From Escherichia coli (lineage in GTDB: Bacteria > Pseudomonadota > Gammaproteobacteria > Enterobacterales > Enterobacteriaceae), in NCBI RefSeq assembly GCF_011045215.1, contig NZ_CP049201.1: a DNA stretch of 64,000 nucleotides; one strand, given 5' to 3'. Below the pieces are notes generated by a model, which ran no database searches, was not told where the DNA came from, and saw only the letters and a list, made by a program, of their open reading frames with translations. Below, in pieces: positions 2,879 through 9,314 of this stretch. Each line of letters opens with the position of its first letter. Position 1 is the first letter of the stretch. Both the position numbers and the translations under genes were made by a program.

Positions 2879-3538
2879 ATGAGCGAACAAATCACGTTTG
2901 CCACCAGCGATTTTGCCAGTAACCCGGAACCACGTTGCCCCTGCATTCTGCTGCTGGATGTTTCTGGCTCGATGAGTGGCAGACCTATTAATGAACTTAA
3001 CGCCGGATTGGTTACCTTTCGTGATGAACTGCTTGCTGATCCGCTGGCTTTAAAAAGAGTGGAACTCGGCATTGTGACGTTCGGCCCGGTGCATGTGGAA
3101 CAACCCTTTACCAGCGCCGCTAATTTTTTTCCGCCCATCCTGTTTGCCCAGGGCGATACACCAATGGGTGCGGCCATTACCAAAGCCCTGGATATGGTAG
3201 AGGAGCGGAAACGTGAGTATCGTGCAAATGGTATTTCGTATTATCGCCCGTGGATTTTCCTGATTACCGATGGTGCACCAACCGATGAGTGGCAGGCTGC
3301 AGCCAACAAAGTGTTTCGGGGGGAAGAAGATAAAAGGTTTGCTTTCTTTTCCATCGGTGTTCAGGGGGCGGATATGAAGACGCTGGCACAAATTAGCGTT
3401 CGTCAGCCTTTGCCTCTGCAAGGATTACAATTCCGTGAACTGTTTAGCTGGTTATCCAGTTCGCTGCGTTCGGTTTCCCGCTCCACGCCGGGAACGGAAG
3501 TTGTGCTGGAAGCGCCAAAAGGCTGGACGTCAGTGTGA
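2879..3538 (+). CDS. yegL: von Willebrand factor A (vWA) domain protein YegL
   Basis: 219 aa; MIDAS-like motif [11 protein letters not shown] near N-terminus; matches K-12 YegL length and sequence. Confidence 0.9.
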
Positions 3539-4296
3539 GCTGGCGTCTGGTCTATGCATCAACCGTTGGAACGTCGCACATCAGCGCGGACTTGCCTTGT
3601 CAGGATGCCTGCCAGATGCAGATTGCCTGGTTAAATGACCAGCAGCCATTATTGTCGGTATTTGTCGCTGATGGCGCAGGCAGTGTCTCGCAGGGTGGCG
3701 AAGGCGCGATGCTCGCCGTCAATGAAGCGATGGCTTATATGTCGCAAAAAGTGCAGGGCGGGGAATTGGGGCTTAATGATGTCCTCGCCACAAATATGGT
3801 ACTGACCATTCGTCAACGACTTTTTGCCGAGGCGGAAGCCAAAGAATTAGCGGTTCGCGATTTTGCCTGCACATTTCTGGGACTGATTTCATCGCCTGAC
3901 GGCACCTTGATTATGCAGATTGGCGATGGCGGCGTGGTGGTAGATTTGGGTCACGGTCTGCAATTGCCTCTCACGCCGATGGCGGGTGAATATGCCAACA
4001 TGACGCACTTCATTACCGACGAAGATGCCGTTTCCAGACTGGAAACTTTCACCAGCACTGGGCGTGCGCACAAAGTTGCAGCATTTACGGATGGTATCCA
4101 GCGACTGGCGTTAAATATGCTGGATAATTCTCCTCATGTGCCTTTCTTTACCCCGTTTTTCAATGGACTGGCGGCAGCAACGCAGGAACAACTCGATTTA
4201 TTACCTGAATTGTTAAAGCAGTTTTTGTCCAGCCCGGCGGTAAACGAGCGTACGGATGATGATAAAACGTTGGCACTGGCGCTGTGGGCAGAGTGA
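3535..4296 (+). CDS. yegK: PP2C-family Ser/Thr phosphatase-like protein YegK
   Basis: 253 aa; GTG start overlapping yegL stop (GTGA); Asp/Gly-rich metal-binding-like motifs ([14 protein letters not shown]). Confidence 0.85.
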
Positions 4297-4360
4297 GTTT
4301 CTCATGGCGGTTGAAGACAACAATTCAACCGCCAGTTTAAACAATAAATATAACGGCTGA

Positions 4361-4822
4361 TTAGCGAACTAATTTTGCTCTTAGCTCGTCGGCTTCTTCT
4401 TTTGGATAGGTGACCAATAAAGGATCAATGGTATAACCGCCGTAAATTTTATCCCCGCGCGTATACATCCAGTCTGAAATATCTTCTTTCTTGATTTTCC
4501 ACTCCTGGCCATATTCTACGTTTGTAACAATACCAGGGTCATTGCTGATTACGCCAATAAACATGCCGTTAGAATAAGTGACATCCGTAAGCCAGAAATG
4601 CTCGGTTCTTCCGTGATCGGTTATCGGGGCTTTGACTGCGAAAGTATCGGCATCTTTTTTATTCATAACCTCGATGAATTTATCGGTTTCTTTCCGCGCA
4701 TGTTTAATCGCGTCAGACATCGCTTGTTTATCATAACCTCCCGTCACTAACGTATCCGAAACTTCACTAAAGCCCGCGGTAGTAAAAAATAGCAGACTCA
4801 ACATAAGTAATATCTTTTTCAT
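4361..4822 (-). CDS. yegJ: Secreted protein of unknown function YegJ (N-terminal signal peptide)
   Basis: 153 aa; MKKILLMLSLLFFTTAGFS signal-like N-terminus; matches K-12 YegJ. Confidence 0.85.
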   Translation of the reverse strand: MKKILLMLSLLFFTTAGFSEVSDTLVTGGYDKQAMSDAIKHARKETDKFIEVMNKKDADTFAVKAPITDHGRTEHFWLTDVTYSNGMFIGVISNDPGIVTNVEYGQEWKIKKEDISDWMYTRGDKIYGGYTIDPLLVTYPKEEADELRAKLVR

Positions 4823-5021
4823 TTTTTCTCCAGAATCCCTTTGTAGTCAAAGTTAGCAAAAACCTGTGGAAGTTAATCATTATCAGGCCGAAATTGAATT
4901 GTATCCTGATAAAATTGCATTATCATTTTTATTCTTGAGTGGGTTTTCCCTATATAGAAATAATTTTAATGGTTAGTTGTTATTATTCATTGAAATATAA
5001 TATAACTACCCGCGAAATATT

Positions 5022-6968
5022 ATGAAAACAAATATGAAAGTATTTACATCGACAGGTGAATTGACCACTCTTGGCCGTGAACTGGGCAAAGGTGGTGAAG
5101 GCGCGGTTTATGATATCGAGGAGTTTGTCGATAGCGTCGCCAAGATTTATCACACGCCGCCACCCGCCTTAAAACAGGACAAACTTGCCTTTATGGCTGC
5201 GACAGCTGACGCGCAGTTGTTGAATTATGTCGCCTGGCCGCAGGCAACGCTTCACGGTGGACGAGGCGGAAAAGTTATCGGTTTTATGATGCCAAAAGTT
5301 TCTGGTAAAGAACCGATTCATATGATCTATAGCCCGGCACATCGTCGCCAGAGTTACCCTCATTGTGCGTGGGATTTTCTACTCTATGTTGCGCGCAATA
5401 TTGCTTCATCTTTTGCTACGGTTCACGAGCACGGGCACGTCGTGGGTGACGTAAACCAGAACAGTTTTATGGTAGGTCGCGACAGCAAAGTGGTACTGAT
5501 TGATAGCGACTCCTTTCAGATTAACGCCAATGGCACACTGCATTTATGCGAAGTCGGCGTGTCGCATTTTACGCCGCCAGAGCTACAAACCTTGTCGTCA
5601 TTTGTCGGCTTTGAACGCACAGAAAATCACGATAATTTTGGCCTTGCGTTGCTGATTTTTCACGTCTTGTTTGGTGGCCGGCATCCTTATTCTGGTGTGC
5701 CGCTTATCTCTGATGCGGGTAATGCGCTGGAGACGGATATTACCCATTTCCGTTATGCCTACGCGTCAGATAATCAGCGACGTGGTTTAAAACCGCCGCC
5801 ACGATCGATTCCGCTATCGATGTTACCGAGTGATGTTGAAGCCATGTTTCAGCAGGCATTCACGGAAAGTGGCGTGGCAACCGGGCGTCCGACGGCTAAA
5901 GCGTGGGTAGCGGCACTTGATTCTCTGCGCCAACAGTTAAAGAAATGTCCCGTTTCGGCAATGCATGTTTATCCCGCTCATTTGACCGACTGCCCGTGGT
6001 GTGCGCTGGATAATCAAGGCGTTATCTATTTTATTGATCTCGGCGAAGAGGTCATTACCACCAGCGGTGATTTTGTGCTGGCGAAAGTCTGGGCGATGGT
6101 GATGGCGTCAGTAGCACCGCCAGCATTGCAATTGCCATTACCCGATCATTTCCAACCGACTGGCAGGCCGCTTCCTTTAGGCCTGTTACGGCGCGAATAC
6201 ATCATTCTGATTGAGATCGCACTGTCAGCGTTATCGCTGTTGCTTTGCGGCCTTCAGGCAGAACCGCGTTATATTATTTTGGTTCCTGTGCTGTCGGCTA
6301 TCTGGATTATTGGCAGTCTGACAAGCAAAGCGTACAAAGCAGAAGTTCAGCAACGCCGTGAGGCATTTAATCGCGCGAAAATGGACTATGACCATTTAGT
6401 CAGCCAGATCCAACAGTTGGGCGGGCTGGAAGGTTTTATCGCCAAACGGACGATGCTCGAAAAAATGAAGGACGAAATGCTCGGGTTACCGGAAGAAGAA
6501 AAACGTGCTCTGGCAGCACTTCACGACACCGCAAGGGAACGGCAGAAGCAGAAGTTTCTGGAGGGATTTTTTATTGATGTTGCCTCTATTCCCGGCGTTG
6601 GCCCTGCGCGTAAAGCGGCGTTACGGTCCTTTGGTATTGAAACAGCAGCGGATGTTACCCGTCGTGGGGTTAAGCAAGTGAAAGGGTTTGGTGATCATCT
6701 GACCCAGGCAGTTATCGACTGGAAAGCAAGTTGCGAACGCCGTTTTGTGTTCAGGCCGAATGAAGCGGTAACGCCAGCAGACAGACAAGCGGTAATGGCG
6801 AAAATGACCGCCAAACGACATCGGCTGGAATCGACGTTGACTGTCGGCGCGACAGAGTTGCAGCGATTCCGCCTTCATGCTCCAGCACGGACCATGCCGT
6901 TGATGGAACCGTTACGTCAGGCGGCAGAAAAACTGGCTCAGGCGCAGGCTGATTTAAGCCGCTGCTGA
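5022..6968 (+). CDS. yegI: Hanks-type (eukaryote-like) Ser/Thr protein kinase YegI
   Basis: 648 aa; N-terminal kinase-like region, hydrophobic segment LIEIALSALSLLLCGL...VPVLSAIWIIGSL, C-terminal helix-hairpin-helix-like motifs (IPGVGPARKAAL; VKGFGDHLTQAV). Confidence 0.9.
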   Translation: MKTNMKVFTSTGELTTLGRELGKGGEGAVYDIEEFVDSVAKIYHTPPPALKQDKLAFMAATADAQLLNYVAWPQATLHGGRGGKVIGFMMPKVSGKEPIHMIYSPAHRRQSYPHCAWDFLLYVARNIASSFATVHEHGHVVGDVNQNSFMVGRDSKVVLIDSDSFQINANGTLHLCEVGVSHFTPPELQTLSSFVGFERTENHDNFGLALLIFHVLFGGRHPYSGVPLISDAGNALETDITHFRYAYASDNQRRGLKPPPRSIPLSMLPSDVEAMFQQAFTESGVATGRPTAKAWVAALDSLRQQLKKCPVSAMHVYPAHLTDCPWCALDNQGVIYFIDLGEEVITTSGDFVLAKVWAMVMASVAPPALQLPLPDHFQPTGRPLPLGLLRREYIILIEIALSALSLLLCGLQAEPRYIILVPVLSAIWIIGSLTSKAYKAEVQQRREAFNRAKMDYDHLVSQIQQLGGLEGFIAKRTMLEKMKDEMLGLPEEEKRALAALHDTARERQKQKFLEGFFIDVASIPGVGPARKAALRSFGIETAADVTRRGVKQVKGFGDHLTQAVIDWKASCERRFVFRPNEAVTPADRQAVMAKMTAKRHRLESTLTVGATELQRFRLHAPARTMPLMEPLRQAAEKLAQAQADLSRC

Positions 6969-6979
6969 GCCATTTTCTT

Positions 6980-8332
6980 TTAACGAAATACCACTTCTGC
7001 CCAGCGTGCCAGCCCGGCGGTGACGGAGCCAAAGTCATCGCCGCCTGCAATCGGAATGCCCGGCAACTGTTCTGCCAGCGCTTTTTTAATCAGCGGCGAA
7101 CGGGCGCTACCGCCGGTCAGGTAGATAACGTCCGGTTTTTCCTGGGCGTTATCCAGCGCCAGTTGCACCTGTTCCAGAATCCGCGCCAGTGGCTGGCTGA
7201 GGGCGCTTTCCAGCCCTTGCTGGCTAATCAGCGTAGCCAGTTCATCGCTGATAAACGGCAGTGAGGCGCGGGTTTCCGCAGTGCTTGAAAGGGCGATTTT
7301 GCTCTCTTCTGCGCTACGCACCAGGCGATAGCTTAAACGCTGACGCCAGACTTTCTGTAACAGGGCCACTTTTTCCGGTTCGCGGGCATCGCGTACCAGA
7401 TCGTTAAGCAGACGACCGTTGGCACTACTGTAGAAATCACTCTGTGCAGGAACGTCGTTGATGGCAACCGCATTCCACCACGGCAGAATCGGCAGGGCGA
7501 TGCCTTTTTCGGTTTCGCCACCCATGCCCAGTAACGGCATCAGGTTTTTAAACGCCAGCGCGATATCCAGATCGTTACCGCCAATACGGCAACCACTGTG
7601 ACCCAGCAGGCTGGCTTCACGATCGAGACGCGAACGCCACTGCGGCCCCATCAGCAGCAATGAACAGTCAGTCGTACCACCGCCGATATCCACCACCAGC
7701 ACCCGTTTTTCTTCCTGCAAGGTGGCTTCGTAATCCAGCCCAGCCGCGACCGGCTCGTACTGGAATACCACGTCCCTGAATCCGGCACGCTTCGCCGCGC
7801 GTTCCAGAATCCCTTGCGCCTGGGTGTTTGCTTCATCACCGCCCAGCCCCTGGAAGTTGATCGGACGACCAATCACCGCCTGAGTAATCGCTTCTGGCAG
7901 CTGTGCCTGCGCCTGCTGGCGAATGTGCAACATCATTGCGCAGACCAGATCCTCAAACAGCGCTACCTGCTGCGGTTTTAAGCCGCTGGCACCGAGGAAC
8001 GATTTTGGTGATTTCACAAACCACACTTCTTCTGGATCATCAATGTACTGTGCCAGTGAGGAAAGACCGAACTGCACGCTTTTCGCCGTAACATCGATAT
8101 CTTCTTCGCGGTTATAACGAATCGCCCGACGTAACAGCGCCTGCGTTTCATCGTCGTCTGCCGGAACATCATGATGGCGGTACAGCCATTCGCTTACCGC
8201 TTCACGCGTTGGCGCGCAAAGCATTGAAGGCAGCAGCGTGCTGTCGTTTTCCATTTTTAGCAAATGCGGTTTACCGTCACGCATGACCGCCACTGAACAG
8301 TTTGCTGTACCGTAATCAAAACCAATAAACAC
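6980..8332 (-). CDS. yegD: Hsp70/actin-fold ATPase YegD (DnaK-like, no obvious substrate-binding domain)
   Basis: Track ORF 6980..8395; start set at GTG 8332 (MFIGFDYGTANCSVAV), giving 450 aa as in K-12. Phosphate-binding motifs FDYGTAN and VVDIGGGTTD. Confidence 0.88.
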   Translation of the reverse strand: MFIGFDYGTANCSVAVMRDGKPHLLKMENDSTLLPSMLCAPTREAVSEWLYRHHDVPADDDETQALLRRAIRYNREEDIDVTAKSVQFGLSSLAQYIDDPEEVWFVKSPKSFLGASGLKPQQVALFEDLVCAMMLHIRQQAQAQLPEAITQAVIGRPINFQGLGGDEANTQAQGILERAAKRAGFRDVVFQYEPVAAGLDYEATLQEEKRVLVVDIGGGTTDCSLLLMGPQWRSRLDREASLLGHSGCRIGGNDLDIALAFKNLMPLLGMGGETEKGIALPILPWWNAVAINDVPAQSDFYSSANGRLLNDLVRDAREPEKVALLQKVWRQRLSYRLVRSAEESKIALSSTAETRASLPFISDELATLISQQGLESALSQPLARILEQVQLALDNAQEKPDVIYLTGGSARSPLIKKALAEQLPGIPIAGGDDFGSVTAGLARWAEVVFR

Positions 8333-8465
8333 GAAATAATCCCCATGCCGGTGAAGAAGGGGCGTGACTTTAGCGAAATGTTGCCGTCGCGACAACCGGA
8401 ATATGAAAGCAAAGCGTAGCGTCTGAATAACGTTTATGCTGAAAGCGGATGAATAAGGAGATGCG

Positions 8466-9314
8466 ATGTATACCCTGAACTGGCAGCCGCCGTATGACTG
8501 GTCGTGGATGTTGGGATTTCTCGCCGCCCGTGCAGTGAGTGGTGTGGAAACGGTCGCTGAGGATTATTATGCCCGTAGTCTGGCGGTGGGCGAATATCGC
8601 GGCGTGGTGACTGCTATTCCGGATATAGCCCGCCATACTCTGCACATAAATTTAAGTGCAGGTTTAGAACCCGTTGCCGCTGAGTGTCTGGCGAAAATGA
8701 GCCGCCTGTTTGATCTGCAATGTAACCCGCAGATTGTTAACGGTGCGTTGGGCAAGTTAGGCGCGGCGCGGCCCGGATTGCGTTTACCCGGCTGTATTGA
8801 TGCTTTTGAGCAGGGTGTGCGGGCGATTTTAGGCCAACTGGTGAGCGTGGCGATGGCGGCAAAATTGACTGCCAAAGTTGTACAGTTTTATGGCGAACGG
8901 CTGGATGATTTTCCGGAGTATATCTGCTTCCCCACGCCTCAGCGGCTGGCAGCAGCCGACCCGCAGGCATTAAAAGCGTTAGGCATGCCGTTGAAACGGG
9001 CAGAGGCACTGATTCATCTGGCAAATGCGGCGCTGGAGGGCAGCTTACCAATGACAATTCCGGGCGATGTGGAGCAGGCGATGAAAACGCTGCAAACTTT
9101 TCCGGGTATCGGGCGCTGGACGGCGAATTATTTCGCTTTGCGTGGCTGGCAGGCGAAAGATGTTTTTCTGCCGGATGATTATCTGATTAAACAGCGATTT
9201 CCGGGGATGACACCGGCACAAATCCGCCGTTATGCCGAGCGCTGGAAGCCCTGGCGTTCTTATGCGCTGTTGCATATCTGGTATACGGAAGGCTGGCAAC
9301 CAGACGAAGCATGA
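8466..9314 (+). CDS. alkA: 3-methyladenine DNA glycosylase II
   Basis: 282 aa, matches AlkA length and sequence (HhH-GPD glycosylase). Confidence 0.92.
   Translation: MYTLNWQPPYDWSWMLGFLAARAVSGVETVAEDYYARSLAVGEYRGVVTAIPDIARHTLHINLSAGLEPVAAECLAKMSRLFDLQCNPQIVNGALGKLGAARPGLRLPGCIDAFEQGVRAILGQLVSVAMAAKLTAKVVQFYGERLDDFPEYICFPTPQRLAAADPQALKALGMPLKRAEALIHLANAALEGSLPMTIPGDVEQAMKTLQTFPGIGRWTANYFALRGWQAKDVFLPDDYLIKQRFPGMTPAQIRRYAERWKPWRSYALLHIWYTEGWQPDEA

Follow-up and report, generated by a model that had tools for sequence, protein, structure and literature searches.

The TerY-P (TerY-phosphorylation) concept goes back to Anantharaman, Iyer & Aravind (2012), as cited in three later papers (PMC11090510, PMC4978471, PMC7699616). 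Two of these link TerY-P triads to systems of DNA processing and restriction (PMC4978471, PMC11090510), and protection against T7-like phages is attributed to one TerY-P form (Gao et al. 2020, via PMC7699616 and PMC11090510). The kinase C-termini described in PMC11090510 are of two kinds, a zinc ribbon in the triads linked to CoCoNuT and an OB fold in a stand-alone defence system, the OB fold being interpreted there as an oligonucleotide binder.

In Escherichia coli, the Ser/Thr kinase YegI was characterized by Rajagopalan & Dworkin (bioRxiv 10.1101/819920; FEBS Lett 2020 by citation). YegI was found to autophosphorylate on serines in a staurosporine-sensitive reaction with a preference for Mn2+ (bioRxiv 10.1101/819920); the published autophosphorylation kinetics are second-order, and YegI is dephosphorylated in vitro by PphC (bioRxiv 10.1101/303594). 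The deviation of its catalytic motifs (VGDxxQxS and DSD) was described, yet the protein is active in vitro (bioRxiv 10.1101/819920). The terms 'helix-hairpin' and 'HhH' do not occur in that preprint, which makes no mention of a zinc knuckle either, and no test or discussion of a YegI HhH domain was found in the literature searched, in which the YegI study was represented by its preprint and the 2012 TerY-P paper by later citations of it. A preprint atlas of bacterial STKs likewise mentions neither YegI nor HhH, vWA or PP2C.

A third group of described proteins comes into play with the C-terminal domain of YegI. Tandem HhH, or (HhH)2, domains occur in the N-terminal domain of Rad51/RadA/Dmc1, domain II of RuvA, the C-termini of UvrC and LigA, and the C-terminal domain of DisA, to all of which the YegI module has marginal sequence similarity (Pfam HHH_5, below the gathering score). 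Unlike the modules of these DNA-handling proteins, that of YegI belongs to a membrane-anchored kinase and has a long helical flank on either side; its DNA binding is putative. The DNA integrity scanning protein DisA is itself a signalling enzyme, in which a helical spine leads to the C-terminal HhH domain; its catalytic domain, in contrast, is a diadenylate cyclase and not a protein kinase, and DisA forms soluble octamers that lack a transmembrane (TM) hairpin, homology being claimed for the HhH module only.

The window analysed here, a stretch of 64,000 nucleotides from E. coli contig NZ_CP049201.1 (assembly GCF_011045215.1), contains a yegI open reading frame at 5022..6968 (+), which runs from ATG to stop, encodes a Ser/Thr protein kinase of 648 aa and is 99.9% identical to RefSeq yegI genes annotated "protein kinase YegI". 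This is the same gene as that of the published YegI (bioRxiv 10.1101/819920, 10.1101/303594), and what was found for the latter holds for the window: an active kinase, the VGDxxQxS and DSD motifs, a two-pass topology with cytoplasmic termini, a phosphorylation that PphC removes and, as in K-type strains, an inserted yegJ. The gene order mdtAB, ibs toxins, yegL, pphC/yegK, yegJ, yegI, yegD, alkA, dgcE is the standard E. coli neighbourhood, with the Hsp70-like yegD following yegI on the opposite strand. Upstream, yegL (2879..3538, +) encodes a vWA-domain protein (Pfam VWA, E 6.7e-10; RefSeq annotation), a TerY-like triad partner, and overlaps by 4 nt with pphC (yegK; 3535..4296, +), which encodes a PP2C phosphatase (Pfam PP2C_2, E 5.7e-52; RefSeq annotation). 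The three genes thus form an adjacent set interrupted by yegJ (DUF2314; 4361..4822, -), an opposite-strand insertion between pphC and yegI in K-12-type strains. Two genes downstream of yegI, the HhH-GPD glycosylase gene alkA was considered as a functional link and set aside, as it is missing near the genes of distant YegI relatives.

Whereas the preliminary description took yegI in isolation, the gene belongs, as the kinase member, to a conserved vWA-PP2C-kinase triad. In four distant relatives out of four, drawn from unrelated metagenomes and genomes, the kinase gene occupied the third position of a vWA - PP2C - kinase operon; the genes of these triads often overlapped, and the more distant neighbours differed. 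Having the same three genes in the same order, often overlapping, around each distant relative examined, yegL-pphC-yegI is a TerY-P-type triad. It differs from the described triads: in place of a zinc ribbon or OB fold, YegI combines a TM hairpin with long helices and an (HhH)2 domain, and yegI is a fixed E. coli core gene (present in 5410 of 5426 complete genomes) rather than part of an island. Known defence-system models (PADLOC 2.0, NCBIfam) did not recognize the triad: PADLOC 2.0 had no match for YegL or PphC and gave only weak matches of YegI to the PD-T4-6/MkoA kinases (E about 1e-4).

Among 1.84 billion representative proteins, searched exhaustively, 3270 were related to YegI at E<=1e-30; unless another set is named, the conservation figures given hereafter derive from 109 full-length relatives with 35-52% identity to YegI. 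The N-terminal part of the protein is an atypical Hanks-type kinase domain (5061..5921, +; about aa 14-300). Its G-loop (GKGGEGAVY, aa 22-30) and subdomain-II lysine (Lys41) follow the usual GxGxxG and Lys pattern, while the canonical HRDxxxxN and DFG motifs are replaced by a VGDVNQNS catalytic loop (aa 141-148) and by DSD (aa 161-163) in the DFG position, with only the Asp residues D143 and D161 being retained of these. Residues G24, G25, E26, G27, K41, G142, D143, N145, D161 and D163 are conserved in at least 95% of the 109 relatives. Pfam Pkinase (PF00069) had no match to the divergent domain of YegI at E<=1, phmmer searches with the kinase domain against PDB sequences returned no match at E<=0.01, and PADLOC and NCBIfam gave weak generic kinase matches; relatives at 40-55% identity to YegI scored 33-40 bits with Pkinase, against a gathering cut-off of 31.7.

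Directly after the kinase domain lies a C-x5-H-x8-C-P-W-C motif (5946..6002, +; aa 309-327, CPVSAMHVYPAHLTDCPWC) found in nearly all of the best 150 relatives, its residues C309, H315, C324, W326 and C327 being conserved in at least 95% of the 109 full-length ones. The motif is zinc-knuckle-like and probably a zinc knuckle. A zinc ribbon is described at the corresponding position of TerY-P kinases in PMC11090510; YegI would resemble them in having this putative Cys/His knuckle immediately after the catalytic domain and a further, putatively nucleic-acid-binding, C-terminal module, although that module is an (HhH)2 domain. A linker joins the motif to the membrane segment. Neither the knuckle nor the long helices that flank the HhH module (see below) figured in the preliminary description.

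That description had placed a strongly hydrophobic stretch at about residues 395-440. The stretch is real, but Kyte-Doolittle analysis with 19-residue windows resolved it into two peaks, at aa 391-414 (mean 2.3) and aa 415-437 (mean 1.9), corresponding to TM helix 1 (6198..6254, +; about aa 393-411) and TM helix 2 (6270..6332, +; about aa 417-437), which are separated by a loop of only five residues, QAEPR. Rajagopalan & Dworkin likewise predicted two TM helices with Phobius, and their PhoA-LacZalpha fusions, in the numbering of the paper, were cytoplasmic at 340, 390, 439 and 646 and periplasmic/TM at 414 and 432 (bioRxiv 10.1101/819920). Residue identities indicate that the numbers of the paper are 2 lower than in the present translation, E340, E390, R414, T432 and E439 corresponding to E342, E392, R416, T434 and E441, and the periplasmic R414 fusion thus falls within the QAEPR loop. 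With two hydrophobic helices and published in-out-in fusions, YegI is a two-pass inner-membrane protein, and a buried hydrophobic core, as opposed to a membrane anchor, is excluded by these fusions. Because the anchor crosses the membrane twice, as a hairpin of two helices, kinase and HhH domain are both on the cytoplasmic side. A further segment, aa 351-369 (Kyte-Doolittle 1.64), was rejected as a third TM helix since the published fusions on either side of it (340 and 390) are cytoplasmic. Among the 109 relatives, the conservation of the TM region is limited to its hydrophobicity.

Beyond the membrane hairpin, long cytoplasmic helices (6345..6563, +; aa 442-514) precede an (HhH)2 domain (6564..6746, +; aa 515-575) made of two hairpins and a connector. 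The first motif, HhH1 (6588-6623, +; aa 523-534, IPGVGPARKAAL), has the hairpin PGVGP, and the second, HhH2 (6678-6713, +; aa 553-564, VKGFGDHLTQAV), the hairpin KGFGD, so that the tandem arrangement reads IPGVGP (aa 523-528), the connector GIETAADV (aa 538-545) and VKGFGD (aa 553-558). The polypeptide then returns through C-terminal helices (6774..6959, +; aa 585-646), predicted by AlphaFold2 at aa 585-607, 609-618 and 620-646. Two C-terminal autophosphorylation sites of YegI, S602 and S644 in the numbering of the paper (bioRxiv 10.1101/819920), lie inside these returning helices, where residue identities place them at S604 and S646.

Four independent lines of evidence bear on the nature of this module. 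Pfam HHH_5 matched YegI at aa 517-552 (E 2e-4 to 9e-4, 20-22 bits), an alignment that covers HhH1 and the connector only, and among the relatives of the tail it matched 33 of 55 at E<0.01 (best E 1.2e-4), all of these matches, like that of YegI, remaining below the gathering score of 27. Tails 44-58% identical to that of YegI aligned over their entire length, and LRSFGIETAADV, GFG, W567 and CERRFxF were invariant or nearly so among the tail relatives. In the 109 full-length relatives, only the kinase core is more conserved than the block of aa 521-580, the hairpin glycines are 88-92% conserved, and the family consensus IxGIGPxRKAxLxSxGIETAADV...VPGFGPxLTxxLLxWR contains two canonical h-x-G-h-G hairpins. 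AlphaFold2 modelled the tail (aa 441-648) as all-helical with a pLDDT of 94.7, and aa 506-582 alone with a pLDDT of 89.7, the module taking on the compact helical structure that known (HhH)2 domains share. The top Foldseek matches were all domains of this same kind, with TM-scores up to 0.68, their E-values, all at least 0.23, being non-significant for so short a query. The best of them were DNA-associated (HhH)2 domains; NusA AR2, the RNAP alpha-CTD, SAM domains and the dimerising HhH domain of Hef were also among the structural matches. Taken together, the profile, the two lines of conservation and the AlphaFold2/Foldseek structure lead to the conclusion that the tail module of YegI is a genuine (HhH)2 domain. 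The two glycine hairpins that had been read as HhH-like are therefore true HhH motifs, and the order of kinase, membrane segment and HhH-containing C-terminus had been read correctly.

When the tail was compared as a profile with PDB sequences, significant-looking matches to clostridial toxins also came up, which were rejected as sums of weak matches: they align a W-x5-F-x-F-N-P segment with the toxin repeats, each stretch at E>40. Once the toxins were removed, faint matches remained to the thumb of Pol IV and to the HhH of L32e (E 0.05-0.5).

The fusion of a kinase with HhH motifs, which had been considered unusual, turned out to be the default of a large family. Most of the best 150 of the 3270 relatives are collinear with YegI over about 645 aa, and the HhH module occurs in 141 of the 151 sequences formed by YegI and these best 150. 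It is also named in the source annotation, as 'DNA-binding helix-hairpin-helix protein with protein kinase domain' (JGI) and 'helix-hairpin-helix domain-containing protein' (NCBI), an architecture that we take to correspond to COG4248. The kinase and HhH combination is thus already known from public annotation, and publications cover the kinase along with its topology and phosphatase; the present analysis adds the fold assignment of the tail and its family-wide conservation. Variants of the architecture were also identified. Some relatives (P0159, P0240, P0134) keep the HhH module and lack the TM hairpin, and others (P0169, P0205, P0148, P0170) have a TM segment after the HhH module, together with SH3 or TPR domains. 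This retention of HhH where the TM segment is absent or relocated supports the kinase-HhH pairing as the constant core of the family and the membrane anchor as secondary. One HhH-less relative (P0265) has a weak, sub-threshold match to an Ada-type zinc DNA-binding domain at its C-terminus.

The architecture of YegI, considered apart from any DNA-binding step, can be stated with high confidence. As to how it may operate, the helices on either side of the module would form an antiparallel stalk bearing the (HhH)2 head at its tip, and this head would bind the backbone of nucleic acids irrespective of sequence, dsDNA close to the inner membrane being the likeliest ligand. Such binding could gather or orient YegI molecules and promote their autophosphorylation in trans; PphC would then reset the switch, with YegL as a partner or substrate adaptor, and the output might be a response to stress or to conflict, similar to phage defence, such as has been proposed for TerY-P triads. 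The coupling of a nucleic-acid cue to phosphorylation, suggested in the preliminary description, is plausible. The explanation as a whole, that of a triad kinase with a DNA-binding (HhH)2 head, is one that we hold tentatively, its chances falling slightly short of even.

Hairpins of the h-x-G-h-G type are typical of HhH motifs that bind the DNA backbone. DNA binding by YegI is suggested by the canonical and strongly conserved sequence of its hairpins across the family, by the predominance of DNA-associated domains among the matches of the modelled structure and, by analogy, by the putative nucleic-acid-binding modules that related triads have at the equivalent position. The net charge of the HhH module, mildly positive in YegI (+4), may be taken as suggestive only; the same figure counts on the other side as well, being modest and variable, with values from -7 to +7 across relatives. 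Also against DNA binding, the (HhH)2/SAM-like fold is used for protein-protein contacts as well, the HHH_5 matches are all under the gathering score, and the Foldseek E-values are all at least 0.23. Against the explanation as a whole speak, in addition, the fixed presence of yegI as a core gene (5410/5426), unlike a mobile defence island, its reportedly very low expression in laboratory conditions, and the weak generic kinase matches that were all PADLOC gave for the triad.

Among the protein-protein roles that this fold could serve, the head and its flanking helices might act as a dimerisation or oligomerisation device that enables trans-autophosphorylation with no binding of nucleic acid, in the way that XPF/ERCC1 and Hef use their (HhH)2 domains, or as SAM domains do. 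This is rather unlikely in our estimation, given that the G-h-G signature is kept at about 90% in both hairpins of a family only 35-52% identical overall, a feature that a pure dimer interface does not need and that counts against it, as does the DNA-associated character of the best structural matches. The HhH domains of Hef and XPF both dimerise and bind DNA, so the two roles are not exclusive. The (HhH)2 domain could otherwise serve to dock a partner protein or a substrate, recruiting the target of the kinase much as NusA AR2 engages the RNAP alpha-CTD, with YegL (vWA), PphC or a DNA- or RNA-associated protein as candidates. The hairpins are usually degenerate in those (HhH)2 domains that bind proteins, the NusA AR repeats for example, whereas those of YegI are canonical, and we regard docking on any of these candidates as improbable.

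The reading of YegI as a triad kinase with a DNA-binding head has a more far-reaching extension, in which YegI would be a membrane-tethered DNA sensor whose stalked (HhH)2 head sits under the inner membrane, DNA-templated clustering switching on the kinase and the triad relaying an immune or stress signal. The DNA sensed in this manner might come from phage genome injection, conjugation or uptake, or be nucleoid DNA pressed on the membrane. We consider this extension speculative and its truth unlikely. Were it true, a set of E. coli core genes would turn out to be a TerY-P-type module for defence or DNA surveillance that has become domesticated, and direct activation by DNA would be shown, with YegI, for a bacterial Ser/Thr kinase for the first time. 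YegI is among the few Ser/Thr kinases of E. coli, and the (HhH)2 head is its only candidate sensory or targeting domain; conserved like the catalytic core, this head is where the input signal of the kinase can be sought most directly, and its function bears also on the HhH branch of the widespread TerY-P triads.

The state of the operon across E. coli raises the issue of whether the module still operates in this species. The yegJ region is found in 1933 of 5426 genomes, i.e. the operon is split in about a third of them, and in some strains an IS1 lies inside this region. These disruptions, together with an expression reported as undetectable or very low, the many shortened E. coli YegI fragments in the protein collection (truncated genes or contig-end partials) and the recurrent yegI mutations reported from long-term evolution lines, speak for a module that is decaying or has been silenced and no longer takes part in signalling, in which case the function of the HhH domain would be moot in E. 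coli. Against such decay, a full-length intact open reading frame is retained in 5401 of the 5426 genomes (at least 80% coverage, mostly 95-99% identity), the signature residues of the catalytic domain, zinc knuckle and HhH motifs are all intact in the copy of the window, and purified YegI is active (bioRxiv 10.1101/819920); we judge the remnant hypothesis very unlikely. A scan for promoters and terminators around yegI gave nothing decisive, and the single promoter candidate that it returned was a sigma-70-like site (9/12) at 4935-4964 (+).

The kinase domain of YegI (window 5022-6050, + strand) is divergent from the Pfam Pkinase family, which gave zero matches to YegI even at E<=1, and PDB sequences compared with the domain gave no match at E<=0.01. 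The Pkinase gathering score is exceeded by YegI relatives of 40-55% identity, and the only Pfam family with a meaningful E-value for full-length YegI was HHH_5. Directly C-terminal to the kinase domain lies a C-x5-H-x8-C-P-W-C motif, CPVSAMHVYPAHLTDCPWC (aa 309-327; window 5946-6002, + strand), which is mentioned neither in the YegI preprint (bioRxiv 10.1101/819920) nor in the preliminary description. Among 109 full-length relatives sharing 35-52% identity, positions C309, H315, C324, W326 and C327 were each conserved at a level of at least 95%. This motif probably represents a zinc knuckle or ribbon.

N-terminal to the transmembrane hairpin, a third, moderately hydrophobic segment, FVLAKVWAMVMASVAPPAL, was also identified (KD 1.64; aa 351-369; window 6072-6128, + strand). 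A membrane-spanning helix at this position was ruled out, since the published fusions on both sides, at residues 340 and 390 in the numbering of the paper, are cytoplasmic (bioRxiv 10.1101/819920). This stretch could be amphipathic, or it could rest against the membrane.

Several architectural variants occur in the YegI family, as seen at two loci holding distant relatives (L003 and L004) and in a number of protein relatives. Some of these proteins have kept the HhH region and are devoid of the transmembrane hairpin (P0134, P0159 and P0240), while others have a transmembrane segment C-terminal to HhH and, beyond it, SH3 or TPR domains that are presumably located outside the cell (P0169, P0205, P0148 and P0170). 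An HhH-less relative, P0265, displayed a weak C-terminal match to an Ada-type zinc DNA-binding domain (E 6e-4, below the cut-off).

On the 3' side, yegI adjoins the Hsp70-like gene yegD (6980-8395, - strand), and the second gene is alkA (8466-9314, + strand), with an HhH-GPD motif of its own, FPGIGRWTANYF. The links of both genes to YegI look coincidental, as neither of them neighbours the yegI-like gene at the loci of distant relatives. Some YegI fragments are listed in databases as "putative chaperonin" or "molecular chaperone", names that probably stem from legacy annotation or were transferred, perhaps from the adjacent yegD. Among the genes found near the vWA, PP2C and kinase triad in distant relatives are those for an AbiJ N-terminal-domain protein, an N6/N4 DNA methyltransferase and a PLD-family (PLDc_2) protein (L002 695-1426, L003 953-2266 and L007 6585-7775). 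This hints at a defence-island-like setting in some genomes, in a sample too small for a conclusion.

In the window, the triad operon is interrupted by yegJ (DUF2314; 4361-4822, - strand, within region 4297-5021), which separates pphC from yegI and runs on the opposite strand. Of 5426 complete E. coli genomes, only 1933 contained this region, against 5410 with yegI, and some strains carry an IS1 inside the region. According to a 2026 paper, YegJ binds RNase E, and its overproduction induces yegD (PMC13232886). Upstream, there is a 4-nt overlap between yegL and pphC (3535-3538, + strand), with the GTG start of pphC within the yegL stop region, an arrangement that suggests translational coupling. 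Tight or overlapping vWA, PP2C and kinase genes also occur in distant relatives (L002, L004 and L007).
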